DNA of 64,000 nucleotides from Hypanus sabinus (lineage: Eukaryota), in NCBI RefSeq assembly GCF_030144855.1, contig NC_082728.1, positions 33,108,001 through 33,172,000 of the forward strand, written 5' to 3'. This document shows positions 11,231 to 56,249 of this stretch, one piece after another. The position numbers and the translations under genes are program-made. The notes beneath the pieces are model-generated. The model saw nothing but the letters and a program-made list of their open reading frames with translations, was not told where the DNA came from and did no database searches. Each line of letters starts with the position of its first letter. Within the stretch, counting starts at the first letter, position 1.

Positions 11231-14200
11231 GAGTTTCTTCTTGCTTCTGATTGTTCATGAAGAGCTGCTGCTGAGATATTGTTTCTGAAATTAAAGGTGG
11301 AAAACTTTCTGGAGACATAAGAAAAGCCCTGATACAAATAATGCATGAATTGAAAGTAATAAAAACAGATATTAGAAATGTGAAGATCACACTTGATAAG
11401 GTGGTGGAAAAACACAAGAAAATGGACAAGGAAGTTAAAAAGTTGGAAGGAAAAATGGGAGACAACACTGAAAGAATGGACAAGACAGAAGATAATATCC
11501 TTGCCTGGACATCAGAAAGAAAACGATTGTTGGAAAAGTAGATGCGCTCGAAAATTTCAGTAGACAAAACAATATTAAGATTGTTGGTCTTGAAGGTATT
11601 GAGGGAGAAGATTCAATAAAATTCTTTCAAAAATGGATTCCAGAAATCTTGGAAATGGAAGAGGGAAGGCAGTTAATTGAAATCGAAAGGGCTCATTGAG
11701 CTTTAAGACCAAAGCCCCAGCAAGATCAAAATCCATGATCAACCTTGATAAAATGCTTAAAATATCAAGATAAAGAAAAGAAGGCAGCTGCTCAAGGTGC
11801 CAGAAAGAGTAATGGGCCATTGATGATAGAAGGGAGAATAGTTATTTTTTCTCCTGATATAAGTTACGACCTTTTGAAGAGGCAGAAGGAATTTAATTCA
11901 ATGAAAAAAATCTTATGGAAAACGGGTTATAAATTTATATTGAGCTACCCAGCAACATTGGTAATTTTTTTGGATGATGAAGAAAGAAGATTTTTTACTG
12001 ATCATCAGAAAGTGGAGGAGTTTGTACAAAAACATCCTAATATTCATGAGATGCGGTAAAGAATTATGGAAATGAAATGGATTAAAGATGAAGACTGAGA
12101 TAGGGATCGGATTTGATGGACATTTATGAGTAGAAGAATATACAAATATACTTTAAGTATATGATAGAAGGTGAACAAGATTTTAAAAAATTGAGGATTT
12201 ATTAATTGGGAGTAGAGATATTATTTTTTTTCTTCGTCACTTATATATATCTTTTTTTGTTACCGGGGAGCTGGAAGAGCTTCTGATCAATTGCTGTGGG
12301 ATTCACGTGTGTAATCATGATGATTGCCATGACCCGTAAAAACGGGGGGGGGGGTAATGTTGTGTTTCTATTCATTCACAACATTAGTGGGGGGGGGGTA
12401 TTTTGTTTTTTTTTCTTTACTATCTATCTATTTTTCTTTTTTTGCCTAGATGATTGGGTGGGAGACACATAGCAACATGGAGAATTTTAAAGAGATTCCC
12501 CAAGGTATTATGAATGACTAATTTACTCAATTTTTTAAGTTTTAATGTTAATGGGCTTAATGAACCTCTGAAAAGAAGAAGAGTTTTATCATATATTAAG
12601 AAAATGAAATGAGATATAGCTTTTTTTGCAGGAAACACGTTTAACAGAGACAAAACATCAGAAATTAAAGAGAGATTGGGTTGGAAGTGTTATTGCAGAT
12701 TAATTTAATTCAAAATCGAGGGGAGTTGCAATTTTGGTTAATAAAACTTTACCAATTAAAATACAAAATGTGTGGGGAGATATGTGATTATACATTGTCA
12801 AATCTTTTTGGAATTATGGACTCTTATGAACGCTTATGCACCAAATGAAAATGATGCAAAATTCATACAAGAAGTTTTTTTGAATTTGGCTGACGCACAT
12901 GATAAAATATTAATAGGTGGAGATTTTAACTTTTGTTTTGATCCAGTTCTAGATAGGTCAACTAAGGCTGTTACGAAATCAAAAGTAACAAAGCTAACTT
13001 TATCATTAATGAAAGACTTAAATTTGATTGATATATGGAAAAGAATTACTCCAAGAGAAAGTGATAATTCATTTTATTCAAATAGACATAAAACTTATTC
13101 ATGGATTGATTTTTTCCTATTATCAATAAATATTCAGGATAGAGTGAAAAGTGTGAAATATAAAGCAAGAATACTGTCAGATCATTCCCCCTTGATAATG
13201 ACAATGATAATGATGGATAAGGAGGAATTGATTTACAGATGGAGATTTAATTCAATTTTATTAAAACGTCGATTTTTGTGATTTTATGTAAAAACAGATC
13301 TGACTTTTTTGGATACATATTCAGTTGATGATAAATTTATATTATGGGAAGCGATGAAAGCATATTTGAGGGGTTAGATAATAAGTTATACTTCTAAAAT
13401 TAAGGAATATATGGTAGAAATAGATCAATTAGAAAAAGAGATTACAAAATTAGAAAAAGAATCCCAAAGATATATGAGAGAAGAAAAATGAAGACAACTT
13501 GTGAATAAGAAGCTACAATATAATACACTCCAGACATATCGAACAGAAAAAGTAATTATGAGAACTAAACAGAGATATTACGAATTAGGTGAAAGATCAC
13601 ACAAGATTCTTGCTTGGCAGTTGAAAACAGAGCAGGCTTCCAAAACAATAAATGCAATTAGAACAAGTGCAAATAAAATTACTTATAAACCTTTAGAAAT
13701 TAATGAAACTTTAAAATTTTTTAATTCTGAACCATATCAATCAGAATAACAAAAAGAGGTTGCTGAGATAGAAATTTTTTTAATCACAAATAACTCTTCC
13801 AAAATTGAATTCAGAAGAACAGAAAGGATTAGATATGCCCTTTACATTAAAAGAGGTTGAAGATGTTTTAGGATCACTCCAGAGTAATAAATCTCCAGGA
13901 GAAGACGGTTTTCCGCCTTAATTTTATAAAAAATTTAAAGATTTATTAATCCCTCCCTTTATGGAGTTAATATATCAAGCGGAAAGAACAAATAAACTTC
14001 CATTCTTTTTCGACAGTGATCCTAATAGTATTGCCAAAAAAAGATAGAGATCCTTTAAAACCAACATCATATAGGCCTATCTCTTTGTTGAATATGGATT
14101 ATAAAATCATAGCAAAAATTTTAGCTAATATATTATCTAGATATTTACCAAAATTAATACATATGGATCAAACAGGCTTTATTAAAAATAGACAATCGGC

Positions 14201-14726
14201 AGATTATGAAACTCGGTTACTTAGCATAATTCAACTGGCACAAAAAAGAGAAGAAATGAGTGTGGCAGTTGCTTTGGATGAAGAAAAAGCATTTGATAGA
14301 TTGGAATGGGACTTTTTATTTAAAGTATTGGAAAAATATGGGTTAGGAAAATATTTTATAAAGTGGATTAAAACTTTAAATACTAGTCCCAAAGCTAAAG
14401 TAGTGACAACTGGTCAAATTTCAACATCATTCCAGTTAACAAGGTCAACTAGACAAGGCTGTCCATTATCACCTGCCCTATTTGTATTGGCGATAGAACC
14501 ATTAGCTGAGTTAATTAGAACCGATCCAGATATTGTGGGCTTCAGATTTAACCAGGAGGAATATAAGATTAATTTATTTGCTGATGATGTTCTATTTATT
14601 TAACAAACCCATTGCGTTCGTTGCCTAAATTATCTTTTAGATTGGAAGAATATGGGAAAATATCAGGGTATAAAGTAAACTGGGATAAAAGTGAAATTTT
14701 ACCCCTTACTAAAGGAGATAATAGTC
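11230..14726 (+). mobile_element. L1-type LINE, 5' part (ORF1, APE, RT), degenerate
   Basis: Coiled-coil ORF1 and IVIFSPDISYDLLKRQKEF; APE (FNVNGLN, IGGDFN, SDHSP); RT (SYRPISLLNMDYK, TRQGCPLSP, LFADD). Confidence 0.95.
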
Positions 14727-15196
14727 TGTTACGTCCGTGGCCCCCTCATTTGTGAGAATCGCCAGATCACTGTTGGGTTGAGTCAAAAGGGGGCCCAAGA
14801 CAGGAGGGGGAGACGTGTAGGATGTCATGTTTCTCCCCCCCATAGCGATGTAAAGCTACGGGACATGGCCATTGTCTCTTGCAGACAGATTTGTGGATTG
14901 AGATGCTCTGCTATGTGAATGCCCTCAGGCAAAGTGGGCTGGTTGAGGGAGAGATTTCATCACCCCCAACCTGATTGACATCTACGACCCTGCGAGTCAG
15001 AATAAAAGAGGGGCTGTAGGAACAACACCTCAGGCGCACCAGAAGAAACGTTAAGCGACCACGTAACAGCAGACGGTCATCGGAAACCAAGCTACGTGTA
15101 TTCAATTCCGTGGCTGGAATTGGTGGCTGAAACCACGGAAAACGGCTTTTTAGCTAACAACGGGGAAACCCGCTCCCCTGACACAACGGATTGATA
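14727..15196 (+). mobile_element. Solo LTR family A, 5' part (split by a 6.16-kb insert)
   Basis: Starts TGTTACG after AGTC; matches 5660-5780 up to CCCCTGACACAACGGATTGATA. Confidence 0.85.
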
Positions 15197-16477
15197 CAGG
15201 GGTGGGCAAACTTTTTGACTTGTGGGCCACAAAGGGTTCTAAAATTTGACAGGAGCAGATGGACGAGTGTTTTGGTAATACACCTCATAAGAGAAAATAA
15301 AATATCATGGGATATGTAGAAAACGTGCTTTAATTTCAATTGAAAATGAACAAATGCATTACAACAAAATATCTGTCTTTGAAGTCCCATGGTATTTAGC
15401 TATTTATTGAAATGACTTTTAAAACACTGAAAATTAAATGAATAAAATACAGCTTTTTTTAATAGTAACAGTTATTATTTTAAAGCACTGAAAATTCTGT
15501 TATCCTTCAAGATATTATCATCATCACTCTCCTCCTGCCTATCTTTATTTCAAAAATGGTAGGAGATGCAGGTCTACTTGTCCTGCTCCTTCTTATTCAA
15601 TTGTCCCCTGTGCCAAAACTCAACAACGACCAGCACAGGGACAGAACAGTGACAGCGCGCCAGTATGCGGAGCGCGTTATTTGATCTGGAGCGCATTTTT
15701 TATTTTGAGAACGTACGTGCACCTGCGCACTACTCATGTCCATCACTTAACAGAAATGACATGTTGACATGTAACATGTAAGGCTTATTGAAAAAAATAT
15801 TTTCAAATGCATTTTTTACATAACACAATGAAGAAACTTATTTTTAATTTCAGTGGGAACAGTGTTGTTGGTCTCCCTTTTTAGCCAGCGCATCAAAGTC
15901 TGGATTTAGTTTTGTTGTGGTGATTCTCAGGATGGATCTGAGGTTTTGGTCAGTTAACTTGGATCTGTGGCTGGCTTTGTTGATGTTCATGACGCTGAAC
16001 GCCTGTTCACACAAATAGGTCGAGCCGAACAAAGAGTAAAGCGCAAATGTGGAGTAATACGCTGCACCTCAACAAAGGTCAATGTGTAGCGGTACGCTAC
16101 ATGCAGCGCTAAAATTACGACACGGAGTCGGTAACTGCAGTCGAAGAAAAAGACTTTATTCGAAATCCCCAGCCTCACTTTTAAGCCTCCCTCAACCTGC
16201 CCCCCGTGACGCAGAGGCTCCAAAGCTCTGTGCTCGCAAATCCCCGCAGGCTATCTCCCTTAGCCTGAACGCTGGCTAATTGTGAGCCGGTTCGGATGTG
16301 CCAGGAAATGGGTCGCCACAAATGTATATAGAGTGCGTCATCTATTGGGAAAACGCTAGAATTGCGGGGAAAAACGTTAACAAGGTTTATTAATATAATT
16401 TCATCAAGTTCTGCGGGCCGGATTAAAAAGCTTAACGGGCCGCATATGGCCCCCGGCCCGTAGTTTGCCCATGCCTG
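15197..16477 (-). mobile_element. Non-autonomous hAT (SPIN/GTF2IRD2-like) with both TIRs
   Basis: TIRs CAGGGGTGGGCAAACT / AGTTTGCCCATGCCTG; transposase C-terminus FGSTYLCEQAFSVMNINKASHRSKLTD; flanking 8-mers differ (GATTGATA vs GGCTAGAT). Confidence 0.9.
16085..16320 (-). mobile_element. Solo LTR of the CsRN1-type Gypsy family
   Basis: TGTAGCGG...CGCCACA, near identical to 41237-41451 plus an extra segment of about 21 bp; 4-bp TSD AATG. Confidence 0.95.
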
Positions 16478-17102
16478 GGCTAGATGCAGGAAGATTGTCT
16501 CTGATGTTGGGGAAGTCCAAAACGAGGGGTCACAGTTTAAGGATAAAGGGGAAGCCCTTTTGGACCGAGATGAGGAAAAACTTCTTCACACAGAGAGTGG
16601 TGAATCTGTGGAATTCTCTGCCATAGGAAACAGTTGAGGCCGGTTCATTCACTATGTTTAAGACAAAGTTAGATATGGCCCTTGTGGCTAAAGGGATCAG
16701 GGGGTATGGAGAGAAAGCAGGTACAGGGTTCTGAGTTGGATGATCAGCCATGATCACACTGAATGGCGGTGTAGGCTCAAAGGGCTGAATGGCCAACTCC
16801 TGCACCTATTTTCTCTGTTTCTATGTTTCTATGTCTTAAAATGAGAGAAACACAAGTTCAGGAAACTACTTAAATGCATGGATAACAAATGCAAGGTATT
16901 GCTTAAAAATGAACTATTCAGATCAGCAAGGTGTAATGACTGAATGGGATTTGGTCCATTTGACATGAAAACTTTGAAACATAGAACACAGGGGACAAAA
17001 ATGCCATCCAGACATTTGGGCTTGTGTCACCACCTAACATGATCATGGATGATCATTCACTCTACTATTCCTGCATTCCCGTTTCTCTTCATTCTTCTAA
17101 AC

Positions 17103-17181
17103 CAGGGGTTCTCAACCTGGAGCCACAGACTCCTTGGTTAATGGTAAGTATCTCTGGCATTAAAAGAGTTGGGAAACCCTG
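17103..17181. mobile_element. Tiny hAT MITE (79 bp)
   Basis: TIRs CAGGGGTTCTCAAC / GTTGGGAAACCCTG; degenerate TSD TTCTAAAC/CTCTATAC; mirrored near 49741-49820. Confidence 0.7.
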
Positions 17182-17679
17182 CTCTATACATCTACCTGCC
17201 CTCTTGAATATATTTAATGGTTTGGCCTCTACTCCCTCCTGTGTGTATAACTCTCCTGATCTCGGTATTGTATACATCATATCTTGAGCCATGACCCCTT
17301 TTTCTGCACTCCTCAGCCTCTATTTAGTCCTGCTAGTTTTTTTGAGTGTGTGTCTTTTAGGAAGTCCAACGTCATTCTTCTGAATTAAAGCAAATCTCTC
17401 TGCATACAATAGTCATTCCATCTCAGGGATCTCTCTATTAAACACTGATTCACTCCACCCATGACAAACCGATTCTTTCTCACATAAGGAGACCAAAACT
17501 CCAGTTGGGCTTTCACCAAGATGACAACATTGCTTTTGCAATGAAAATCATCTAATTTGAATACTTGCTTGCTTCAACTATCAACGTACAAAGGCACCCA
17601 CTTGAAACACGTTTCTTTTTCCCAATTTATCATTGCTTAGATAATAATCTGCCTCACACACTAAATGCTGCTGGAACTC

Positions 17680-18632
17680 AGCAGGCCAGGCCGCATCTAT
17701 AGGAAGAAGTACAGTCGACATTTCAGGCTGAGACCTTTCGTCAGGACTAACTGAAAGAAGAGATAGTAAGAGATTTGAAAGTGGGAGGAGGAGGGGGAAA
17801 TCCAAAATGATAGGAGAAGACAGGAAGGGGAGGGATGAAGCTAAGAGCTGGAAAGTTGATTGGAAAAAGGGATACACCACTGGAGAAGGGAGAGGATCAT
17901 GGGACGGGAGGCCTAGGGAGAAAGAAAGGGGGAGGGGAGCACCAGAGGGAGATGGAGAGCAGGCAAGCAGTGATTTTGAGAGGGGCAGAGAGAAAAGGGG
18001 GTGGGGGCAGAGAGAGAGAGAGCGAGAGAGAGATATATATATAAATAAGGGATGGGGTAAGAAGGGGAGGAGGGCAATAATGGAAGTTAGAAAAATCAAT
18101 GTTCATGCCATCATGTTGGCAGTTACCCAGACAGAATATAAGGTGTTGTTCCTCCAACCTGATGATGGCTTCATCTTGACAGTAGAGGAGGCCATGGATA
18201 GACATATCAGAATGGAAATGGGATGTGGAATTAAAATGTGTGGCCACTGGGTGATCCTGCTTTCTCTGGTGGACAGAGCGTAGGTGTTCAGCAGAACGAT
18301 CTCCCGGTCTGCGTCGGGTCTCACCAATATATAGAAGGATTCACCGGGAGCACCGGATGCAGTATATCACACCTGCTGCCTCACGGGTGAAGTGGCTCCT
18401 CACCTGGAAGGACAGTCTGGGGCCCTGAATGGTGGTGAGGGAGGAAGTGTAAGGGCAGGGGGTAGCACTCATTATGCTTACAAGGATAAGTGCCGGGAGG
18501 GGGTTTGGTGGGAAAGGATAGGGGGGACAAATAGACAAGTGAGTCACGTAGGGAACTATCCCTGTGGAAAGCAGAAAGAGTGGGGCAAGGAAAGATGTGC
18601 TTGGTGGTGGGATCCCGTTGGAGGTGGATACT
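17680..18632 (-). mobile_element. Penelope-like element 3' part (GIY-YIG region and tail)
   Basis: GTYPCKH..CYPCP..VIYCIRCSR..IGETR..HFNSTSH..LEEQHLIF; mirrored at about 48320-49250. Confidence 0.8.
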
Positions 18633-19661
18633 GGAAATTATATGACTTCCCAATGCTTATACTCAACAGCCCAAATGCTGAAAGCATGTCTGCCAAATCC
18701 CTTCCTTACCACCTTAACAACGTGTGTTGCCACTTTCAATGAGCTATTGACTTCTTCCTCAATATCCCTAAGTACAATAATGCTCCTCACTTCCTGCTAT
18801 TTACTGATCAAATTCCTTGTGCATTTGACCTCCCAAAGTACAACACCTCAAATGTATTCAGATTACACTCCATCTGCAATTTCTCTGCCCGTATCTCCAA
18901 TTGGTGTATAACCTACTGATTCCTTCCGCACTGTTCACAACTCCCCCTGTTTTTGCATTGCTTAAAAATTTACTCATCAACCACTTATTTCCATCCAAAT
19001 CAGTTATATAAATCACAAATAACAGAGGTCCCAGCATTGACCCTTGTGGAACATCACTGGCCACAGACCTCCAGCCAGAGTAACTCCCCTGCATAATTAT
19101 ACTCTCTCTTTCATGGCCAAGCCAATTTTGCATCCAACCTATCAAGTCTCCATGGATCTGTTGGGCCTTAGTATTCTGGATTAACCTACCACAAGTAATC
19201 TTATCCACAGCTTTACTATAGCATTTACTGCCTTGCCATTATCAATTACCTCAAAAAGCACAGTAAGTTTGTGATACATGTCCTCCTCCAAAGGAAGGAA
19301 TGATGGAGAAGACTCGATGTGCCAATTGGCCTAATTCTGCTCCTGTGACTTGTGATCTTTGCTTTTCCCGATGTGACATGAACCTATCCATAACAATTCT
19401 CTCCAATAATTTTGTTTAAGGCTCACAGGCCTGTAATTTGCTGGTTTGTCTCAAAAATAGAGGAACAGTATTGACTAACCTCCATTTCCCCCGGGACCTG
19501 TCAATATAGAGGATACAAAGATCTCTGTCAATCAGCAATATCCTGTCTTGCCTCTCCTGGTAACTTGGGATAGATCATATCAAGCTCTGAGAATTTATTC
19601 AGCATAATATTCTTCAGCAGCCCCAATTCCTCCTGCTGTTTAGTATCAACATGATCTAGAA

Positions 19662-20436
19662 CAGGGGTGGCCAATCTTTTATATTCCATGCGTCAATTTT
19701 TTCACACACGAGTTCTGATGTGTCATACAATTTTTATATGAGCCTTATATGCTCTTCAGGTTGGTGCTTATGCAGGTTTCCATGGCATGAGGCGACTGAG
19801 AGTACAATGCCCACCCCCCAGATAGGACGCCAGTCTATCACGAGGTTAACCCCCAGCATTTTGCCGGTACTCATTTTCAGCTGGGTGGACTGGAGCAATG
19901 TGTGGTTAAGTGCCTTGCTCAAGGACACAACATATTGCCCCGGCTGGGGCTTGAATTCACGACCTTCAGGTCTCTAGTCCAATGCCTTAACCACTTGCCC
20001 ACACACCACACTATACAACTCTTATACCCCCATTCAATTCTTGTAAGAATATGTTAATATAGACATATTTAGCATTTTTACGGGATGTATTGATTTAGTA
20101 TAAAAAACAAGATAAACATTACTTAATGAGACTTTTAACACATATATTTTGTCTTCTTTTGATTTCTTCCTTTTTCTTAATCACATATTCTTTCCGTAAC
20201 TCAAACCCAAGCAGTAGCTTCAGTTTCCCTTCTATTTCAGTCTGATGTTGTGTTTTATTGTGTCTATTAAGATCATGTCTTCTCTTGTGTGAGAAAGTGT
20301 TTTCACAAACAATGAACAACGGTTTTCCTGATGGACATGCTATAAATATGAACTCATTTTCCCGCTGTTCATTGTGGCAATTCTAATCAACCAATGCACC
20401 ACTTTTGGCACTGGCACCATAGGTTGGCCATCCCTG
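19662..20436 (-). mobile_element. Non-autonomous hAT with perfect 8-bp TSD, carrying a zinc-finger remnant and a SINE
   Basis: TIRs CAGGGGTGGCCAATCT / AGGTTGGCCATCCCTG; TSD ATCTAGAA on both sides; CIVCENTFSHKRRHDLNRHNKTQH. Confidence 0.92.
19736..20010 (-). mobile_element. tRNA-derived SINE (duplicated copy)
   Basis: Reverse-complement copy of 46941-47213. Confidence 0.8.
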
Positions 20437-20815
20437 ATCTAGAATATTTGCGTACCACTCTCTGATCTCACTAACCACACTTGAGGAAAAACTTTTTTGC
20501 CCAGAGAGTTGTGGATCTATGGAATGCTCTGCCTCAGAAGGCAGTGGATGCTAATTCTCTGGATGCTTTCAAGAAAGAGTTAGATAGAGCTCTTAAAGAT
20601 AGCAGAGTGAAGGGATATGCGGAGAAGGCTGGAACGAGGTACTGATTGTGGATGATCAGCCATGATCACATTGAATGGTGGTGCTGGCTCAAAGGCCGAA
20701 TGGCCTACTCCTGCACCTATTGTCTATCCTTCATGTACTTCTCTTTAAATGCAAAGTATGTTTCGTGTTATTTTAATTCCATCCTTCAACTGATGAGTTA
20801 TTTTTTCTCCAACAG

Positions 20816-20850
20816 GTGACAAAGAAAATAGAATATGTGTATCAAGTTAA
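20816..20850 (+). pseudogene. Orphan duplicated terminal exon, (G)DKENRICVSS-stop
   Basis: Acceptor TTTTTTCTCCAACAG|GT GAC AAA.. then TAA; copy of 46096-46130; AATAAA at 21014-21019; no upstream plus-strand exons found. Confidence 0.5.
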
Positions 20851-21358
20851 TTCTCAAAAAAAAAGCCAGATTCTGTCATCAATCTACTCTTGTCAATCAA
20901 CATAATTATTCATGTAAATTAGCAAAATCACTATTGTCAATATATTTTCACCAGATTCCTGTGTTGATATCTTACAGTTTAATCAGCTAATCATGCTATT
21001 CTTTCTGCATCCAAATAAAAGAACTGGAATCTGAACTGAAAGTTATCAACAAAAAACTTTAAGAGAATTTTCCAAGATGCAGACAAGATGAAGCCTGACT
21101 TTCTGAAGATTACGATCAAGGCACAGAACAGCTGAAGTCAATAAGAAAAATAAATCCTTTCTGTTCGATTACTTAACTTTGTGGAAATGTAATATATCTT
21201 TAATAATTAACTTTTAAAATAAAAAACTCCAAATTTCAGACAGTATTCAGAATGATTTTATTGTAATGGCATGTTTTTCAGTCAGAAAATTAATGTGAAA
21301 GCTATTTCGTGATTCCAAAATCCATGTTCAGACCCATCCTACAATCCATATAAGCTTA

Positions 21359-21671
21359 TCATAAAAGACTTGGGCAAGTTTAAACCACATCACTTTTAAA
21401 TCCAACAACGCTGCAGCTTGAATGAACTGATAGTGACTTATCTTTCCATCGGATAATACAGTAACCCCTAGACAACGAGTGTTATTTCTAATCGGTTATT
21501 ATTATACCCGCGCTTAGATTTAATATTGATGATGTATATTATCTGTATGTTTGCATTAATCTTCTTTTTGTGCCCTTTATCAATAAATACTTTCAAAAAT
21601 AGTACCATCAGACTTCGACGGACCTCTCTACCTTTGCTGATAAGTGATCCAGTTACGGGAATTTCGTAACA
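21359..21671 (+). mobile_element. Solo LTR family A, 3' part
   Basis: Resumes at TCATAAAAGACTTGGGCAAG (compare 5791-5810), ends CGTAACA followed by TSD AGTC. Confidence 0.9.
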
Positions 21672-23437
21672 AGTCAATGTCGATTAGTATCTCAATTTAG
21701 ATGGCCGACAAATGGTATAAAATATTTAGGTATAAGAGTCGATAATGATATAAAGAATTTATATAAATTAAATTATTTGCCATTATTGAAAAAAATACAA
21801 GAAGATCTTGATAAATGGACGATGTTACCAATAACATTAGTAGATACAGTTAATGCTGTAAAAATGAATATATTTCCTAGATTACAAAATTTATTCCAAA
21901 CATTACCAATACAACTGCCCCAGAAGTTTTTTCAAGAGTTAAATAAATGTGTGAAGAAGTTTCTTTGGAAAGGTAAGATGTCAAGAATATCTTTGGAAAA
22001 ATTGACATGTAAATTTGACCCAGGAGAGTAACAACTCCCAAATGTTAAGAATTATTATAAAGCAAATCAACTTAGATTTATTGCATTTTTTTTATGAAGA
22101 AAAACCGGCATGGATTAGAATAGAGTTAGATAAGATAGGAGAAAATATACCAGAAGATTTTATATATAAATGGGAATCCAAATAGATACGGGAAAAGAAA
22201 GAATCTCTTATATTAAAACATTTGATCGATTTATGGAATAAGGTAAATGTGGATGATGAGATAAAGAAATCTTTATTAGCAAAGAGAACCCTAATTCAAA
22301 ATAGACTTATTCCTTTTACAATGGATAATCAACTTTTATATAACTGGTTTCAAAAAGGGATCAGATATATAGGTGACTGTTTTGAAGGAGGTATATTGAT
22401 GTCGTTTGATCAATTAAGGAATAAATATAAAATGTCAAATAACACTCTTTTCTGTTATTTTCAATTAAAAGCCTATTTAAGAAATAAACTGGGTCAAACA
22501 AAGTTAATGCCAAAACCTAATGAAATAGAAGCATTAATTCAAAAAGGAAAAATTAAAAATTTACATCTTGTATGTATAATTTGATTCAAAAATAGACAAT
22601 TGATTTGAATATTAAAATTGATGGAAAAAAATTGGTCAAGACGATGTCTTAATAGTATGACAAATACAATAAATGTCCAACTTAGATTAGTACAATACAA
22701 TTTTTTACATCAATTATATATTACACCACAAAAAATAAATAGATTAAACTCAAATTTATCTCACCAATGTTTCCGATGTAATCAAGAAATTGGTACTTTT
22801 TTACACACGGTCTTGTTTTAAAATTCAACCTTTTTGGATAAATCTAAGACTTTTACTGGAACAAATTATTGGAATACAACTTCCACATAGCCCAATATTA
22901 TTTTTATTAGGCGATATTGAAGGGATAATACCAAAACCAAAATTGAACAAATATCAAAAAAAATTATAAAAATTGCATTGGCAGTGGACAAAAAAGCTAT
23001 TGCAGTTGCTTGGAAATCAGATTTATACTTTACTATGGAACGTTAGAATAATGAAATATATAGCTGCATTCCACTTGAAAAAATTACTTATAATTTAAGA
23101 AATGAATATGATATATTTCTGAAAAATTGGCACCCCTATCTACAAAAGACAGGATTAAATATATAGGTCCTTTGAAGATAAAATTATTAGTTATTTGGGG
23201 AAAAAATAAAGATATACTAAAGTTATTTTGAACTCCATGGAGCATGTGGGGATCCTCCAATATCCAGGCAATCCTTCTTTCTTTTTATTTCTTTTTTCTT
23301 TTTTTTAAGACAGGGATGTTAAGGTGGGAAGTGTTAAGGAGAGGGGGGAGTGGTAATATTAATTTCCGTTACTCTATTATTCTATTCATTTTATGTAATT
23401 CTCTTAAATTTTATTGAAAAATATATTTAAAAAAATT
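21672..23437 (+). mobile_element. L1-type LINE, 3' part (late ORF2, Cys-rich region, 3' UTR, A-rich tail)
   Basis: Continues the L1 sequence across the AGTC TSD (..SQCRLVSQFRWP..IKYLGI); CFRCNQEIGTFLH; G-rich UTR and A-rich end. Confidence 0.92.
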
Positions 23438-31580: not shown

Positions 31581-33269
31581 CATACATACGATACAAATGG
31601 CAAAAATGTGTAGTATTCTACTTACATAATACTCCTGCTTCTATTTTGGACAGAAGCTGACTACATATCACATTTCATTGTTTTAGTTCCTGAGAAGTAC
31701 AGCTCAGCGGAAAAATGGCTTAATGGATTCATTCAACAGGAAGCAAACTTTCAAAGTGCAACTGAGCTTAAGAGCTTATTCTCTCTTCATTGCCTTATAG
31801 GATTTTGTACACAGGCTTGCTTAGTATTTCAGGTGTAAAACAGTGTCACTCTTTGATACTTGAGACTGATCTCACTGATGAGATTGATTAAAGCACTAAT
31901 AATCAATATATGAAGCCATTAATTTCAGATAAAAGCGATGGTGAAGAGTCCAACAAAGTGCCCGAGTTAAAACTGGGTTCTTATTTTACCCAAGAACTGA
32001 GATTATTAAAAGCACAATTCTTGCTTTCAAGTTATTACAGAGGAATGTCAGAGTTCTTTGTGAAGGATGTTGAAGTTTCACAGTTGCACAACAGAACATC
32101 AGACAGATCAGACATCATATCACAAAATGATGGTTCCTCGATATAAGTTCAAAGTTAGTGGGACAGTCCTCAAATCTGAGTAAATTTTTTAAGCTGTTAA
32201 AGAAGAACAAATAAATTTTGAAAATCATGATGTGTGTGGCTAAAAATAAGTCATTGTTTGAAATCAAACCTACCATTTGATTTCCTGCTTCTTCATAGAA
32301 CTGTCAAGCTAAAAACAAAAGAAAATAGTTATTTATGTTACAGTAATTTGAAGTAAATTAATATTTCTTGATGTAAAAATAATCCAAATTATTTTCCTTA
32401 TTGTTCTTAAACTCCTAATCATGCATACTAAGAGTAGTAACAATGACAGTAATAATGAATTCTGACTTTTTCTGTAATATTCAGGTATTTCCAACAACAA
32501 CGTTATGCAAAAATGATACAATTTTGAGACTGAGACCAGTCTACAAATAATATATCACTCCCTCTCAGTTGGAAATTATGTTACCAATCGATCAGTTTAA
32601 TTGTCTGAAGTAATAAATAATCCAGGTGAAATTATCTCAAATCCTAGCCTCGCAATATGGGTAGTTGAGCGTAGTTTAATAAGTATGCCTGCTGCCAGTA
32701 ACTGTAGACATAAAGATTTATCTCTATCTACTCCCCATTCTTATCTTTCATTTCTTCCCACCTGCCTATTCTGGTTCCACTCCTCCTTTGTTTTCTCCAA
32801 TGGTCCATTTTCCCCTATCAGATTATTTTTTCTCCAGCCCTTGACCTTTCCTGCCCACCTGGCTTCACCTATCACGTTCACGCTAGTCTCTTTCACCTCC
32901 CCCCTCAGCACATTTATTTTCTAGTGTCTTCCCCACTTCCTTCACAGCCCTAAAGAATGGTCTCAGCCTGAAATGTCAACTGTTTACTCTTTTCCACATA
33001 TGCTGCCTAACTTACTGAGTTCTTCCAACATTCTGTGTGTTTGCTTAAAATTCAATCTCCTTTAGAATTTTGTGGAAAACAAACAACTTGCTTATTCATG
33101 TCCTTTAACAATGAAAAAACACTACTCGCAATTGGTCTGGCTCTTTTTTATCTGACAACATTCCTACGTTATTTCCTCAACTATCCTATACACTGGCAAG
33201 TCACTCAATTAACTGCTAAAACACACAGAAACACTTACTCAATGCAATGAAGGCCAGCAAGTCAAAGTT

Positions 33270-33590
33270 CAAAAGTTAAAACTTTATTATTAAAGTGCGT
33301 ACTATCACCATATGTATTACTAGCATGAGATTCATTTTCCTGTGGGCACTCACAGTCGACACAAGGAGATACGACAGGATCAGTAAAAATCTACACAGAA
33401 AGGTGGTCAGACAACCAATGTGCAAAAGAAATTAATAAATAGTATTGAGAACATGAGCTGTAGAGTTGTGGAATCAGTTCAGTGTTGAGGTGTGTGAAGA
33501 TATCCACACTGCTCCGGAGTTTGATGGTTCCAGGGTAATAACTGTTCCTGAGCCTGGTAGTGTAGGACCAAAGGCCCCATAATTTCACAC
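33270..33590 (-). mobile_element. L2-type LINE 3' end
   Basis: TTRLRNSYYPGTIKL resembles the L2 C-terminus; short tandem tail. Confidence 0.55.
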
Positions 33591-33661
33591 ATAAATTATG
33601 TTTTTAAAAGCTTTTCTTTTTTATAGAATGTTCTCTCCAGCACCATTTGCTTTACCCAATA

Positions 33662-33717
33662 CTACATCAATACTTGCTGCACTGTACATGATGGTAGTTT
33701 GATAACAGAATCAGACC
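33662..33717 (-). CDS. B7-like gene, putative last coding exon (G)SDSVIKLPSCTVQQVLM-stop
   Basis: Acceptor CTCTGATTTACCTTCTGCAG; phase-1 compatible; stop TAG at 33664-33662. Confidence 0.4.
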
Positions 33718-33872
33718 CTGCAGAAGGTAAATCAGAGCATTCCAGGGTGACTCATCTGGTGAGTCTTTCAACGAAAGTGTGAATATGGTGAAAATATCTG
33801 CACATTCTGAGGCCAGGATTTGGATTAATTGATTATATAATTTATCATGGTTTATATTGGTACTTTATCTAC

Positions 33873-33911
33873 CTATCCCTGTAAAGATCCACTGCAGACA
33901 GGACTTCAAAT
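33873..33911 (-). CDS. B7-like gene, short cytoplasmic exon (D)LKSCLQWIFTGI
   Basis: AAGCAG acceptor (tandem AG, alternative start 33914), GTAGAT donor, 39 bp, phase 1-1. Confidence 0.5.
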
Positions 33912-34135
33912 CTGCTTGTGTTTGGAAGGCAAATGCACAAATACATACACAGCCCTGCTAACAATCTTGACCAGCCAGCTATAGATCATAACAATTGGCA
34001 ATCATTAAAGTTTTCAGTCTTTCACAGATTATGAAATTATATTTTATATTAATCATTGATTATCTATGCATAATTTTTCACCAATGATTAATACTTTGAG
34101 TTACAAGCATTCAGAAGTTTGCTGAAATATTGTAC

Positions 34136-34276
34136 CTCGATGGCGCCTTCTCCAGAATTTCAAAAGACCCAGGAGGAATATTCCAGCAGCAAGACCTCCA
34201 ACAATGATACCTACTGATGTGAGGGATTTTCTCTTTCTTCCTTCAGTGTGTTGATTCTTAATTGGCTGATATGCAA
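34136..34276 (-). CDS. B7-like gene, transmembrane exon
   Basis: TTTTCTTTTAAAAG acceptor, GTACAA donor, 141 bp phase 1-1: (I)AYQPIKNQHTEGRKRKSLTSVGIIVGGLAAGIFLLGLLKFWRRRHR, a hydrophobic helix followed by a basic stop-transfer. Confidence 0.85.
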
Positions 34277-35713
34277 CTTTTAAAAGAAAAAGCAGAATAA
34301 GCCGTAAATTTCACCATCAATCTTCATAAGAACACTGATGTAATTTGCTTATATACACCACAATTTTTAAAAATCTGTCATATTAATCTCCAAGCAAAAC
34401 TGTAATTTCATAACCACCCTGGAACAAACACCCGCGAGAGCTAAATATAGCCTCTAAAGCATAACAAATGTAAGAAAAAGAAGAATGATTGGAACAACCA
34501 AAGTATAACAACTTCCCTATCATTCAATGAGATTGTGGCTTTTATCTCAGCTGTATTTTCATACACATTCCCCGTATCCCTAAATACCCAAACTTCTATT
34601 TATCTCAAACATGGAAATATTTGGCGACTCAACTTCTGCAGTCTCCATTGGTAGACTGACTGGCTTCTGATGAAGTCCTTCTTCTCATCTGGGTCATGAA
34701 AGGACAACCCTGAAGTTTGAAACTGATGCTGTGTCCAGACACCTCAACCAGGGAATATCAACAACATGTGAAGAACCGTGATAATTTTGTACCTTCCAAT
34801 GAGAAAAACACTGATTTTTTTTAAATTTAAGGGAGCTTAGATCAAAACCCCTATTTTAGGAATTAACCTGGTTGCCCATTGCTCCAGTCTCTCTACTGCA
34901 AACCCATAGGCAAATAGTATTCCAAATGTTGACTCACCAAGGCCCTCAATAATTGGAGCAAGATGGCCCCATTCTTGAAGTCAAATCATCATGCAGTTGA
35001 AACCTAATAAATAATCTGGCTTCCTACTTATTGCATCATATGGAAATTAAATTTCAGTGATTTGTGCCAAATGATGTGCACATTGCTCTAAGCACCAACA
35101 GCTATCAATTTATCATGAGTTAATGGTGGAGCAGGCTTGACAGGCCAAGTGACATCATCATGTTTCTATTTTTTATGTTCATATATTCAATTGTTTCCCT
35201 GCCCCAGCACTCCCATCTGCTCTCTGTACCTTCCCCCTTTGATTCCACATCTGCCTCTAAGTCAGCCTGACCTGAATTCACCTATCACCTGCTAGCTCTT
35301 GTTCCAGCCCTTCTCTTCACCCAGTAATGGTTTATATCTCTCCTCTTTCAGTCCGGATGGAGGGGCTAAACCTGAGATATCAACCGGGCATTTTTCTTAC
35401 AGATGCTACTTGAACTATTAAGTTCTTCCAACTTTTTCTAGCTAAGACTGATCGCTGCAGTACCCCATTTGTCATGCCTCCCAGACTGAAAATCTCCAGC
35501 ATATTTCTATTTTTTTTGTCCATTTCCCAATATTCAGACTAGGTCAGTATATTGCATCTTGTGACATATGCTAAAATTTGCTTTGTTACACCCACTCAAG
35601 GTTCTTCTGGAAATCCAAATATACCAAGTTGGCAGCATTGAGAACCAGAAATATTGTAGCAATTAGTTAAACAATCGCTTTGCTAATCATGAAAAAGAAG
35701 ATTATGAACATAC

Positions 35714-35998
35714 TTGAGATACTGTTCCTGGCTTCATATTTATGTTCTGCCTCATTCCACACAGCACAAGTGCAGTTATGTTCCTGGTCAGTTTCTGACG
35801 TTATAATTAGAAGTGTGCTGGTGAAATAGATCAGTCCGTGAGCAGTTTTGTTTCCTTTAGTTTTTGAGTTAAGTGTGAGGTTTTTCCCATTGACGGTCCA
35901 ATGAATCTGATCGGAAGGATATCCAGTTGTTTCACAAGTGACCACCATGGTCGTTTCTGTCAAATTAATTAAGGCCAGTTTTGGCAAACTGTAGGGAG
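35714..35998 (-). CDS. B7-like gene, IgC exon copy 2 (membrane-proximal)
   Basis: TTTTTAG acceptor, GTATGT donor, 285 bp phase 1-1; (T)PYSLPK..VTCETTGYP..IHW..NCTCAVWN. Confidence 0.9.
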
Positions 35999-36904
35999 CT
36001 AAAAAGACAGCATTGTATTATTTGATAATATTGGCCAATCTTTCATTATTCCAAAATCTGCCATCCCTGCCATAGTATTCCAGCATGGCCACTGAAAATC
36101 AAAGCTCTGAACACTTAATCATGGCTGAACGCAACCCAATTGCTGTCACAGCACAGGTAGTCAGCAGGTCTCACAGAATAGATACAGCAACCAATGAAAC
36201 CCTGAGCTCTGCCTCAGAGGCTTTCACTTTCATAAACATTCATCAAGGTATAAATATTATTGTATTGAAAAGCTGAACTTCATATCTATGCCAAACAACT
36301 AATTAAGGAAAATAATAACCATCCCATGCTTGACAGACCAGATGACATCATCATGTTTCTATTTTTTATGTTCATATATTCAATTGTTTCCCTCCCCCAC
36401 CACTCCCATCTGCTCTCTGTACCTTCCCCCTTTGATTCCACATCTGCCTCTAAGCCAGCCTTACCTGAATTCACCTATCACCTGCTAGCTCTTGTTCCAG
36501 CCCTTCTCTTCACCCAGTAATGGTTTATATCTCTCCTCTTTCAGTCCAGATGGAGGGGCTAAACCTGAGATATCAACTGGCCATTTTTCTTACAGATGCT
36601 ATTTGAACTATTAAGTTCTTCCAGCTTTGTCTAGCTAAGACTGATCACTGCAGTATCCCATTTGTCATGCCTCCCAGACTGAAAATCACCAGCATATTTC
36701 TATTTTTTGTCCATATCCCAATATTCAGACTAGGTCAGTATATTGCATCTTGTGACATATGCTAAAATTTGCTTTGTTACACCCACTCAAGGTTCTTCTG
36801 GAAATCCAAATATACCAAGTTGGCAGCATTGAGAACCAACAATATTGTAGCAATTAGTTAAACAATCACTTTCCTAATCATGAAACAGAAGATTATGAAC
36901 ATAC

Positions 36905-37186
36905 TTGAGATATTGTTCCTGGCTTCATATTTACGCTCTGCCTCATTCCACACAGCACAAGTGTAGTTATGCTCCTGGTCAGTTTCTGACATTATAATTG
37001 GAAGTGTGCTGGTAATAGAGATCAGTCCTTGAGCAGTTTCTTTTCTTTTGGTTTCTGAGCTGAGTGTGAGGTTTTTCCCATTGACGGTCCAATGAATCTG
37101 AGCGGAAGGATATCCAGTTGTTTCACAAGTGACCACCTTGGTCATTTCTGCCAAATTAACTGCCAGTTTTGGCAAACTGTAGGGAG
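36905..37186 (-). CDS. B7-like gene, IgC exon copy 1
   Basis: 282 bp phase 1-1; splicing gives VVK-APYSLP, the V-C linker motif seen in B7 members (for example VxAPYSKP in CD276); canonical C..W..C. Confidence 0.9.
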
Positions 37187-37875
37187 CTAAAAAGACAGCA
37201 TTGTATTATTTGATAATATTGGCCAATCTTTCATTATTCCAAAATCTGCCAGCCCTGCCATAGTATTCCAGCATGGCCACTGAAAATCAAAGCTCTTAAC
37301 ACTTAATCATGGCTGAACGCAACCCAATTGCTGTCGCAGCACAGGTAGTCAGCAGTTCTCACAGAATAGATACAGCAACCAGTGAAACCCTGAGCTCTGC
37401 CTCAGAGGCTTTCCCTTTCATGAACATTCATCAAGGTATAAATATTATTGTATTGAAAAACTGAACTTCATATCTATGCTAAACAACTAATTAAGGAAAA
37501 TGTAACCATCCCAGGAGACATTTTCCATTCCTTTGAATGGATTCTGCTATGTTTACACCAGCTTTAAGCTGCAAAGCCCTGGGTACAGATTCCTTGAGGA
37601 CACTCTTGGTGCAACGCAGGGGCAACCACTGCCTGTGGGGTATGCCACTACGATGGAGAGATATTGGTTAATTCTCAGCGTTAATGCCAAGGGATCCTTG
37701 CCAGCATATGTTGATGCAACACCCTCAACAATTTTCATCAGCTAACCCTCGTCACTACCTCCTCCCATAGATGCCGTCTGGCCTGCTGAGTTCTGCCAGC
37801 ATGTTGTGTTTTTTTTAATTTCCAGCATCTGCAGATTCATTCACTCGTGTTGTCTTAGAATACACTGTTACTCAC

Positions 37876-38202
37876 CTTTAACCACTAAAACGATGTCAAC
37901 TTCCTGATATCCCACATCTGTATCCAAAAAGTAAATATATTTCCCACTATCTGAAAGTTGTGTTTTTTGAAGTACCAACGATACATTTTGTAGATCTGGA
38001 GAAAGTAATTTAATTCGATCCTGAGCTTTCCTGAGATTATGACTTCCATTAAACTGAAAAATAGGTCTATCATTTCCATCATCTTTTCTCAATTCAATGG
38101 TTATGGATTTACTTGGCTTTGCTGTTGTCAGGTTGCATGGCAATATCGTGTCCTCGTTCAATATTCCCGTCACCGTCTCCTCGCACTTCAAAGTCACGAA
38201 CT
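37876..38202 (-). CDS. B7-like gene, IgV exon (non-canonical)
   Basis: TTTTTTTGCAG acceptor, GTGAGT donor, 327 bp phase 1-1; DTILPCNL..NVSLVLQKTQLSDSGKYIY V-set pattern. Confidence 0.9.
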
Positions 38203-38286
38203 CTGCAAAAAAATACATCCCATCATCTTCCATTACTATCGTCAGTGTTGAATGAGCTAGTGTCTGAAAAACGATTTACTACTTAC

Positions 38287-38368
38287 CCTGTGCAGAGTAA
38301 ACGTTTGCACACAGCACCAAGTAAAAATATATCTGTAGGTTTAAATCCATTTCCAGAATTCCCTTCAT
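38287..38368 (-). CDS. B7-like gene, signal-peptide exon
   Basis: (MKGILE)MDLNLQIYFYLVLCANVYSAQ then G|GTAAGT phase-1 donor; ATGs at 38368 and 38350; 84-bp intron to the IgV exon. Confidence 0.85.
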
Positions 38369-50087: not shown

Positions 50088-53000
50088 ACATAGAAACATA
50101 GAAAATAGGTGCAGGAGTTGGCCATTCGGCCCTTCGAGCCTGCACCGCCATTCAGTATGATCATGGCTGATCATCCAACTCAGAACCCTGTACCTGCTTT
50201 CTCTCCATACCCCGTGATCCCTTTAGCCACAAGGGCCATATCTAACTTTGTCTTAAACATAGTGAATGAACCGGCCTCAACTGTTTCCTATGGCAGAGAA
50301 TTCCACAGATTCACCACTTTCTGTGTGAAGAAGTTTTTCTTCATCTCGGTCCGAAAAGGCTTCTCCTTTGTCCTTAAACTGTGACCCCTCATTCTGGACT
50401 TCCCCAACATCAGAAACAATCTTCCTGCATCTAGTCTGTCCAATCCCTTTAGAATTTTATACATTTCAATAAGATCCCCCCCTCAATCTTCTAAATTCCA
50501 TTGAGTATAAGCCTAGTCAATCCAGTCTTTCTTCATATGAAAGTCCTGCCATCCCAGGAATCAATCTGGTGAACCTTCTTTGTACTCCCTCTAAGGCAAG
50601 AATGTCTTTCCTCAGATTAGGGGATCAAAACTGCACACAGTACTCCAGGTGCAGTTTCTCCAAGGCCTTGGACAACTGCAGTAGAACCTCCCTGCTCCTG
50701 TACTCAAATCCTTTTGCTATGAATGCCAACATACCATTTGCCTTTTTCACCGCCTGCTGTACCTCCATGCACACCTTCAATGACTGGTGTACAATGACAC
50801 CCAGGTCTCGTTGCACCTCCCCTTTTCCTGATCGGCCACCGTTCAGATAATAATCTTTTTTCCTGTTCTTGCAACCAAAGTGGATAACCTCACATTTATT
50901 TACATTAAATTGCATCTTCCATGAATTTTCCCACTCACCTAACCTATCCAACTCACCCTGCATCTTCTTAGCATCCTCCTCACAGCTAACACCGCCGCCC
51001 AGCTTCTTGTCATCCGCAAACTTGGAGATGCTGCATTTAATTCCCTCCTCTAAATCATTAATATATATTGTAAACAACTGGGGTCCCAGCACTGAGCCTT
51101 GCAGTACCCCACTAGTCACTGCCTACCATTCTGTAAAGGACCCGTTTACCCCGTTTGCTTCCTGTCTGCCAACCAATTCTCTATCCATATCAATATCATA
51201 CCCCCAATACCGTGTGCTTTAAGCTTGCACACTAATCTCCTGTGTGTGACCTTGTCGAAAGCCTTTTGAAAATCTAAATATACCACATCCACTGGTTCTC
51301 CCCATCCACTCTACTAGTTACATCTTCAAAAAATTCTATGAGATTCGTCAGACATGATTTTCCTTTCACAAATCCATGCTGACTTTGTCCGATGATTTCA
51401 CCTCTTTCCAAATGTGCTTTTATCACATCATTGATAACCGACTCTAGCATTTTCCCCACCACCGATGTCAGACTAACCGGTCTATAATTCCCCGGTTTCT
51501 CTCTCCCTCCTTTTTTAAAAAGTGGGGTTACATTAGCCACCTTCCAATCCTCAGGAACTAATCCAGAATCTAAGGAGTTTTGATAAATTATCACTATTGC
51601 ATCCACTATTGCAGACCATCTGGCCCTGGGGATTTATCTGCCTTTAATCCCTTCAATTTACCTAACACCACTTCGCTACTAACATGTATTTCCCTCAGTT
51701 CCTCCATCTCACTAGACCCACGGTCCCCTACTATTTCTGGAAGATTATTTATATCCTCCTTAGTGAACCAAAGTAGTTATTCAATTGGTCTGCCATGTCC
51801 TTGTTCCCTATGATCAATTCACCTGTTTCTGACTGTAAGGGACCTACATTCGTCTTGACCAATCTTTTTCTTTTCACATATCTATAAAAGCTTTTACAGT
51901 CATTTTTTATGTTCCCTGCCAGCTTTCTCTCACAATCTTTTTTCCCTTTCCTAATTATCCCTTTGTCCTCCTCTGCTGGTCTCTGTATTTCTCCCAGTCC
52001 TCAGGTGTGCTGCTTTTTTTGCTAATTTATATGTTTCTTCTTTTGACTTGATAATATCCCTAATTTCCCTTGTCAGCAATGGGTGCACTACCTTCCCTCA
52101 TTTATTCTTTTGCCAAACTGGGTTGAACAATTGCTGCAGTTCATCCATGCAATCTTTAAATGCTCTCCATTGCATATCCACTGTCAACCCTTTAAGTATC
52201 ATTTGCCCGTCTATCTTAGCTAATTCACATCTCATACCTTCAAAGTTACCCTTCTTTAAGTTCAGAACCTTTGTTTCTGAATTAACTATGTCACTCTCCA
52301 ACTTAATGAAGAATTCCACCATATTATGGTCACTCTTACCCAAGGGGCCTCGCACGACAAGATTGCTAACTAATCCTTCCTCATTGCTCAATACCCAATC
52401 TGGAATGGCCTGCTCTCTAGTTGTTTCCTCGACATGTTGGTTCAGAAAACCATCCCGCATACATTCCAAGAAATCCTCTTCCTCAGCACCCTTACCAATT
52501 TGGTTCACCCAACCTATATGTAGATTGAAGTCACCCATTATAACTACTGTTCCTTTATTGCACGCATTTCTAATTTCCTGTTTAATGCCATCCCCAACCT
52601 CACTACTACTGTTAGGTGGCCTGTACACAACTCCCACCAGTGTTTTCTGCCCCTTAGTGTTATGCAGTTCTACCCATATTGATTCCACATCCTCCAGGCT
52701 AATGTCCTTCCTTTCTATTGCATTAATCTCCTCTCTAACCAGCAATGCTACCCCACCTCCTTTTCTTTTCTGTCTGTCCCTACTGAATATTGAATATCCC
52801 TGGATGTTGAGCTGCCATCCTTGGTCACCCTGGAGCCATGTCTCTGATCCCAACTATATCATATTCATTAATAACTATCTGCACATTCAATTCATCCACC
52901 TTGTTACGAATGCTCCTCACATTGACACACAAAGCCTTCAGGCTTGTTTTTCCAACACTCTTAGCCCTTATACAATTATGCTGAAAAGTGGCCCTTTTTG

Positions 53001-53345
53001 CTTTTTGCCCTGGATTTGCCTGCCTGCCACTTTTACTTTTCACCTTACTACTTTTTGCTTCTACCCTCATTTTACACCTCTTTGTCTCTCTGCATTTGTT
53101 CCCATCCCCCTGTCACGTTAGTTTAAATCCTCCTGAACAGCAGAAGCAAACGCTCCCCCTAGGACATTGGTTCCAGTCCAGCTCAGGTGCAGACCGTCCT
53201 GTTTATACCGGTCCCACCTCCCCCTGAACTGGTTCCAACGTCCCTGAAATTTGAATCCCTCCCCCTTGCACCATTTTTCAAGCCACGTATTCATCTGAAA
53301 TATCCTCCTATTTCTACTCTGACCAGCACGTGGGACTGGTAGTGC
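50088..53345 (-). mobile_element. CR1-type LINE (end of ORF1 esterase, APE, RT, 3' tail)
   Basis: RNRRIFQMNTWLEKWC; SETWL..VYRPP..MGDFN..SDHN; NYRPVSLTSVVGK; QGSVLGP..KFADD; (TTTCTATG)n tail. Confidence 0.95.
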
Positions 53346-53859
53346 CACGAAAGACCATGAAACTTGCTGGAAACTTTTTGCTTCCTCCACCGTTGGCTTC
53401 TGATACACATTTATTACAGATTTTATTCTTCCCAACTTCTTAACCCCCTTTCTCTTTCTCTCCTTCAAATACCTCTAAATATCCACCACTTTGGACCAGT
53501 TATTTCTTCACATGGGATATTGTCTTCATCTTTAGATCAGTGTCAGATTTCATTATAATTCTGTCCATGTTGAGATGTTTTGCTGTTAAATTGCTTATAT
53601 TGTGTAGAGAATATGTGATGGTATTGCGAGAGAACAGGACTGAGGTCAACAATGGCCACTTATACATTATATTGCTTATGATTGATGCTCTTTAGACTCT
53701 TTTATGAAAAATGGTCACTCAGTTAAGTGTGGTGGGTGCTGCAGTCTTACCCTAGCTAAACTTGGAATGGAGAAAGACGGATTGGTAAAAGTGTGAATGG
53801 GTCTTTATAGAATGGAATGGAGAATAGAACCTTCAAAAACTGCTATGTAACACCAGTTT

Positions 53860-55769: not shown

Positions 55770-55895
55770 CTTTAGAAAACTTATTCTTGCAGTAAAAAAC
55801 TGCTATGCACAGCAGTATTAAGAACACCAAGGAGAGAATAACACCCACAAGTATTCTAACGTCATCCAATAGTTGCTGAGGAATTGCTTCAACTT
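55770..55895 (-). CDS. Transmembrane exon of a second type I membrane-protein gene
   Basis: TTTTCCATTGCAG acceptor, GTAGAC donor, 126 bp phase 1-1: VEAIPQQLLDDVRILVGVILSLVFLILLCIAVFYCKNKFSK. Confidence 0.85.
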
Positions 55896-56249
55896 CTGCA
55901 ATGGAAAATAAATAATTAAATTGTCTGAAAATGTAGAATTTACATTCTGTAGCACAAAAATGTAAACTTAATATTTAATTTTGTAATTGACTATGTACAA
56001 TATCAATTCATGAGATAACTGCCCTGAGCCAAGTAAACTGTGTGTTAGTCTTAGGATACATAGGTTACATTGAATTGGGAATTTTAGACAAGCCAAATAC
56101 GCTCATGCTCAGCTGCAACTTGTGCGCGTTATTGCAAATGATTCTTTGAGGCATGGGAAACATGAACCATATTAATGGGGATTCAACTTGATGGGAATTT
56201 CAGCTTTGGAGGGTTTCAATGTAATTATAAATTTAAAAAGAACTAAATC

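Follow-up and report, generated by a model that had tools for sequence, protein, structure and literature searches.

The stretch analysed here (the window) comprises 64,000 nucleotides of Hypanus sabinus (assembly GCF_030144855.1, contig NC_082728.1, positions 33,108,001 to 33,172,000 of the forward strand) and is part of a tandem array in this 4.04-Gb genome, with a unit spacing of ~75-100 kb. Each array unit carries two minus-strand immunoglobulin (Ig) genes, one PD-L1/PD-L2-like and one butyrophilin/B7-like, and the locus is a probable B7/PD-L1-like and butyrophilin-like immune-gene cluster, the gene names in it being automatic NCBI labels. The cluster is also present in Hemitrygon and Mobula. 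Within the window, a 6.16-kb insert (15197-21358) interrupts a solo long terminal repeat (LTR), hereafter LTR-A. The first base of the insert is the terminus of a hAT-type miniature inverted-repeat transposable element (MITE), which has two intact terminal inverted repeats (TIRs) and no target-site duplication (TSD) and is followed by 4.9 kb of captured host DNA. The features that make up the insert, its recipient site and its donor are as follows.

11290..23432, plus strand: decayed L1-type long interspersed nuclear element (LINE), the outermost host, with endonuclease and reverse transcriptase Pfam hits at 12760-13281 and 13971-14603
14727..15196, plus strand: left part of solo LTR-A, with a 4-bp TSD at 14723-14726; 39 other matches at 94-96%
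15197..16477, plus strand: non-autonomous hAT-type MITE of 1281 bp without TSD; 16-bp TIRs at 15197-15212 and 16462-16477; full-length family copies at ~96%
16085..16320, strand not set: solo LTR nested in the MITE, belonging to the LTR family of the Gypsy element at 41237-45437 (self-BLAST)
16478..21358, plus strand: captured host segment, an inverted copy of 45592-50436
16478..16833, plus strand: 3′ end of the donor CR1 within the insert, its first 8 bases being a canonical hAT target with TA at the centre, at a position of repeated insertion
19662..20436, strand not set: older hAT-type MITE, a passive passenger with its own 8-bp TSD at 19654-19661 and 20437-20444, read from the arm alignment
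20816..21358, plus strand: duplicate of the butyrophilin/B7-like gene's last exon, with an intact acceptor at 20814-20815, ~11 codons and the stop at 20848-20850
21359..21671, plus strand: right part of solo LTR-A, with the 4-bp TSD at 21672-21675
45592..50436, minus strand: donor arm, containing the butyrophilin/B7-like gene's last exon, which runs from 46130 downwards
50090..53350, minus strand: donor CR1, with an empty, footprint-free hAT target at 50429-50436

A preliminary description of this DNA had noticed an insert in LTR-A that starts exactly at a hAT TIR and continues as an inverted copy of 45592-50436, and its coordinates proved right. Self-BLAST gave a single inverted hit (16480-21358 against 50434-45592), which a global alignment extended to 16478-21358 against 50436-45592, with 172 substitutions in 4801 columns (3.58%) and 19 gaps; the two arms are separated by 24 kb. 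LTR-A is uninterrupted across 15196/21359 in all 11 other copies examined, so no LTR base was lost at insertion. The earlier statement that LTR-A was rejoined with almost no loss is thereby sharpened, with the limits of LTR-A corrected to 14727-15196 and 21359-21671. At position 15195, the window has a T in place of the C found in 11/11 other LTR-A copies. The L1 is found in neither neighbouring tandem unit, the alignments to both skipping from 11289 to 23433/23435. An order of L1, then LTR-A, then insert fits both the nesting and the divergence: private differences amount to 25/760 (3.3%) in LTR-A and 12/1267 (0.95%) in the MITE, for which other copies range from 0.9 to 2.1%, while the arms have accumulated 1.4% on the insert branch and 1.6% on the donor branch, plus 0.4% unresolved.

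The identity of the donor was established by comparison with the paralogous units of the array. The 3′ end of the donor CR1 is missing at this place in 5/5 paralogous units, whose alignments all begin at 16833; insert and donor have 84 sites in common against the paralogues; the insert-donor distance is 3.5%, as opposed to 7-10% to the paralogues; and a 1.29-kb deletion is common to insert and donor. These comparisons identify the donor as this unit or its allele, and a paralogous donor was ruled out for the five assembled paralogues on the same four grounds. This removes one half of the earlier proposal, which placed the hAT initially in the CR1 of a donor allele or paralogue. A small CR1 at 46218-46474 also occurs in unit U-4, and only the large CR1 is diagnostic of this unit. 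Differences between the arms are evenly split, with 58 on the insert branch, 64 on the donor branch and 16 unresolved in 4087 columns, which argues against an assembly duplicate.

A family-wide control was obtained from other copies of the MITE, sampled as the best hits to the window copy and not at random. An 8-bp TSD was kept in all 76 other copies with two intact TIRs, a count composed of 25/25 (22 in register and 3 by eye after a shift of 1-2 nt), 48/48 and 3/3; loci in which one end is damaged or absent, eight in all, were excluded from it (7 of 58 survey loci, including 2 unresolved, plus L064). Among 77 copies with both ends intact, the window copy is thus the only one without a TSD; its flanking 8-mers differ at 6 of 8 positions, in line with the mismatch already reported in the preliminary description. 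Such a structure is rare in the family, at roughly <4% of copies (0/76). The target sites have a central TA in 71 of the 76 cases (24/25, 45/48 and 2/3), a preference which was judged from the count of the central dinucleotide alone and which we take to be of Buster type. The 16-bp TIRs of the window copy have two mismatches to each other, and no transposase frame was present among its open reading frames of at least 100 aa, no search for an autonomous partner having been made. The nested Gypsy-type solo LTR is common to the whole MITE subfamily and has spread with it genome-wide, and LTR-free copies also exist. About one in ten MITE copies has one end lost or separated (L107, L123, L124, L147, L157, L159 and L163).

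Three joints can be read in the insert. At the right joint, the 8-mer at 16478-16485 has the family-typical central TA and matches the CR1 family state. Its single mismatch to the donor 8-mer is private to the donor, the insert's base at 16479 being present in 27/27 other CR1 rows; the correspondence between the right flank and a hAT-type site in the donor CR1 had been pointed out in the preliminary description. The same CR1 position has been targeted recurrently, with 20 and 24 matches in two pattern searches and none in reversed controls. The 24 CR1-target loci fetched comprised the window copy and 16 other distinct loci, and CR1 was present on both sides in 16/16 of these (one with a weak 3′ match). 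This target (homologous sites L075-L098) is used in both orientations by more than one MITE family. At the far joint, TA ends both the left flank of the insert (in LTR-A) and the insert itself, the insert's TA being supplied by the donor; the result is a 2-bp overlap, of a size often given by chance, in agreement with the earlier observation that this junction has TA microhomology only. Anchored comparison of the far joint with the TIR gave 4-5/16 matching positions and hence no TIR, and the best candidate for a cryptic TIR within 40 bp of the far end reached 10/16, a score of at least 10 being attained by 30/225 control windows. No poly(A) or LINE tail is present at 21358, intronic DNA and nested repeats are retained, and there is no TSD. 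The right joint is a normal hAT joint at a recurrent target, and the far joint is of repair type. The left joint, between LTR-A and the MITE, is exact at the first TIR base.

The exact start at the TIR and the fact that this is the only TSD-less copy of 77 almost surely tie the hAT to the event. Because an exact TIR start, the lack of a TSD and a complete recipient are hard to obtain without a transposase cut, we consider it probable that the insert is a copy of the MITE and 4.9 kb of adjoining host DNA that was started by transposase and finished by repair, a reading that covers both possible orders of the steps. Of these, our tentative preference, held at somewhat less than an even chance, is that the MITE was placed in the donor CR1 on a now-lost allele and only then took part in a one-ended event into LTR-A. 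Such a history would begin with one allele of this unit receiving a normal MITE insertion at the hot spot in CR1. Transposase would then cut at the left end of the MITE only, and the cut end would join a break in LTR-A; copying or breakage would stop 4.9 kb past the right end, where end-joining at TA would connect it to the other LTR half. Later loss of the hAT-bearing donor allele would leave the clean donor seen today. On this history the arm split should be older than the MITE insertion, and the observed direction agrees.

Several observations weigh against this interpretation or its favoured order. The MITE looks only slightly younger than the arm split, and the gap is not significant (Fisher p 0.11-0.26). 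The 8-mer flanking the left joint has TG at its centre, where 71/76 targets have TA, so the left joint does not look transposase-made. The donor site at 50429-50436 contains no hAT and no footprint and is colinear with 9/9 CR1 family copies, as expected from the earlier remark that the donor arm lacks a hAT; likewise, no locus combining the donor flank with a hAT was present among the 12 + 12 loci fetched from the two CR1-target pattern searches. The first 120 bp of the captured CR1 hold 10 donor differences against a mean of 4.25, which places them in the top 4.4% of windows in a post hoc comparison that is not significant. This is suggestive of synthesis having switched over from a different CR1 copy in the first 80 bp, although site 16561 in the captured CR1 points to the donor. 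Finally, no known hAT pathway gives exactly this product, and an extra break, or synthesis aborted 4.9 kb out, has to be assumed. Given the clean donor and a left joint without central TA, a right joint made during the event itself fits about as well as the allele version of the earlier proposal.

The same core with the opposite order is possible, if somewhat doubtful. An excised MITE, from a local hop out of LTR-A or from elsewhere, would have only its right end joined into the CR1 hot spot on the sister strand, and repair would copy flank and element into the break in LTR-A, running off at the free left end. This sequence of steps requires no lost allele, leaves the donor pristine and would give an off-target left joint, as expected of end-joining. 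Excision sites of hAT elements carry hairpin-derived footprints, and the TA found at either side of the insert could be what trimming left of an 8-bp TSD centred on TA once the hairpin had opened; however, this order needs 3-bp trims on both sides, or else an unrelated break 35 kb from the target, and the TA requires a prior C-to-T change in this LTR copy. The opposite order also predicts equal ages for MITE and arm split, for which 0.95% and 1.4-1.6% were observed, a difference that is not significant. An unlikely course is one without any transposase cut, in which template switching or one-sided homologous repair mended a break at or beside a MITE, with synthesis running 4.9 kb into the flank. 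The template would have been a MITE-bearing copy, either with a second MITE in the donor CR1 or at a different CR1 locus from which synthesis then switched to the donor CR1. Gap-filling captures by animal TIR elements typically show a cis bias and short microhomology (PMC8277862), MITEs at this CR1 position would be common templates, and the raised divergence at the start of the captured CR1 would also fit. Against this, a switch exactly at the first TIR base is improbable without a cut there, the breakpoints reported in PMC8277862 skew to the element interior, and a MITE resident in LTR-A should show a normal target on its left, which the left flank is not.

We regard as very unlikely a history in which ordinary repair made the duplication, a MITE later inserted at the copied CR1 hot spot, and a deletion then removed the left TSD and the remainder of the CR1. 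The MITE does look slightly younger than the arm split, its site is a hot spot, and one end has been deleted in five of 53 copies; all five, however, have lost TIR bases, none retaining both TIRs, and because LTR-A is complete the deletion would have had to stop precisely where the TIR begins and also no more than 2 bp away from the old breakpoint. An assembly artefact, with a piece of the other haplotype mis-joined in inverted orientation, is extremely improbable. The cluster does contain near-identical units, and no sequencing run of H. sabinus itself was found among 20 listed runs, the best of which shares 0.29 of words. On the other side, the 64-kb window contains no N, the arms are 3.6% apart with evenly split changes, the LTR is divided at base precision, and the insert starts with an element that the donor lacks. 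Sequencing runs of four relatives, compared with 14400-22000, gave 0/32 pieces bridging a junction among the matches listed, a repeat-swamped result that counts neither way. At 17033, 17333 and 18973, contigs of the relatives mostly have the paralogue state and not the state common to insert and donor, a weak hint that the relatives split before the event or lack this unit. Two further candidates were rejected separately: a composite transposon with the internal MITE at 19662-20436, which still has a TSD of its own and stops 920 bp before the far joint, and a Helitron, Tc1/mariner or LINE transduction, for which the termini are unsuitable.

The host genes of the unit and the captured exon were then considered. 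Coding features of the window outside the insert are listed below.

32170..38368, minus strand: coding span of the PD-L1/PD-L2-like gene (IgV-IgC-IgC-transmembrane), its stop ~10.8 kb from the insert
55771..55896, minus strand: transmembrane exon of the butyrophilin/B7-like (donor) gene, whose IgV and IgC exons lie outside the window in locus L035

The captured exon was identified by tblastn, in which residues 276-285 of P0012 matched 20818-20847 with 10/10 identities; ~500 bp of presumed 3′ untranslated region follow the stop at 20848-20850 and are truncated at the far joint. The penultimate exon is absent from both arms, and was therefore lost before copying. In the butyrophilin/B7-like gene of this unit, the IgC exon has a 1-bp deletion in addition to the missing penultimate exon (L035:2126-2376; window 48296-48315), and from these two lesions the donor gene is probably a pseudogene. 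The exon copy is intergenic, amid dead retroelements, ~10.8 kb past the stop of the PD-L1-like gene and on the strand opposite to both genes. No plus-strand host gene able to use it was seen, in a search that was not exhaustive, and the captured exon is probably inert. The duplicated exon in an immune locus described earlier is thus real in that an exon was carried within a B7/PD-L1-like cluster, but it amounts to only 11 codons and 3′ untranslated region of an already broken gene. As a sole homologue query, the transmembrane exon of the butyrophilin/B7-like gene gave no match, and matches were obtained with its IgV exon. In the PD-L1/PD-L2-like gene, the IgC exon is tandemly duplicated at 35132-37513 (94.8%); the annotated protein P0001 contains the two copies, and two IgC domains are also present in three Hemitrygon proteins. 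The Gypsy-type element at 41237-45437 has long gag-pol frames and LTRs 3.7% apart, and it terminates 154 bp short of position 45592, the far breakpoint of the donor. In the stretch compared, three units located below the window (L029, L045 and L047) are almost identical to one another, suggesting that tandem amplification was very recent or that the assembly has trouble with collapsed repeats.

Taken as a transposase-started and repair-finished copy, the insert is likely the product of a single old aberrant hAT event in a vertebrate germline, and neutral. The closest counterparts come from maize, where Ac/Ds alternative transposition with re-replication duplicates a hAT element and kilobases of adjoining DNA to a linked site (PMC4270019; bioRxiv 10.1101/2020.01.07.897926), and where composite insertions have a host-repair joint with 0-9 bp of microhomology (PMC4270019). 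The insert resembles a maize composite insertion in that host DNA adjoining an element end was duplicated to a linked site, the prior adjacency at the donor being presumed. It differs in that the maize product has two termini, element ends on both sides and an 8-bp TSD, whereas here there is one element, one bounded side and no TSD. Animal Pack-TIRs are described in PMC8277862 as cis duplicates of nearby host DNA with a median microhomology of 2 bp (gap-filling, FoSTeST), and the nearby cis source (24 kb) and 2-bp overlap of the insert are similar; however, a Pack-TIR encloses host DNA between element ends, whereas here both TIRs lie on one side and the host DNA lies outside a complete element. 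Because of this position of the host DNA and the far end without a TIR, a Pack-TIR screen would miss the insert. The same study describes P-element end bypass as 3′ transduction by a TIR element with its downstream flank (PMC8277862). An element moved with its downstream flank here too, but end bypass involves TIR-like flank sequence and an expected TSD, and neither is present.

Half-site integration by retroviral integrase and P-element hybrid-element insertion likewise combine one enzyme-made and one host-made joint with local duplication or inversion; those cases concern other enzymes and are experimental, whereas the insert records an old germline event of a hAT MITE. Similar element-anchored rearrangements are reported in an Arabidopsis study (PMC12312487), which also recounts an inversion attributed to insertion of one end while the other stayed where it was. 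Duplication of host DNA by cut-and-paste elements is well documented in maize and induced Drosophila lines, and in animals mainly as Pack-TIRs (PMC8277862). No vertebrate hAT case was found in the literature searched, outside which lay most subscription papers; the supplementary figures on Pack-TIRs might contain related structures. It is uncommon for a natural vertebrate case to offer donor and product at a distance of 24 kb, three readable joints and a family-wide control. It would be rather a bold conjecture, and one we hold to be doubtful, that duplications made by vertebrate hAT MITEs form a class of their own, consisting of single-ended, TSD-less, inverted copies of several kb of flank. 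If it were true, the present locus would supply its first dated natural case, and more would be expected, some with working exons or enhancers. Screens for composite insertions and for Pack-TIRs would be blind to such a class, since only one side has an element end; the signature to scan for would instead be two intact TIRs, no TSD and one flank duplicated nearby.

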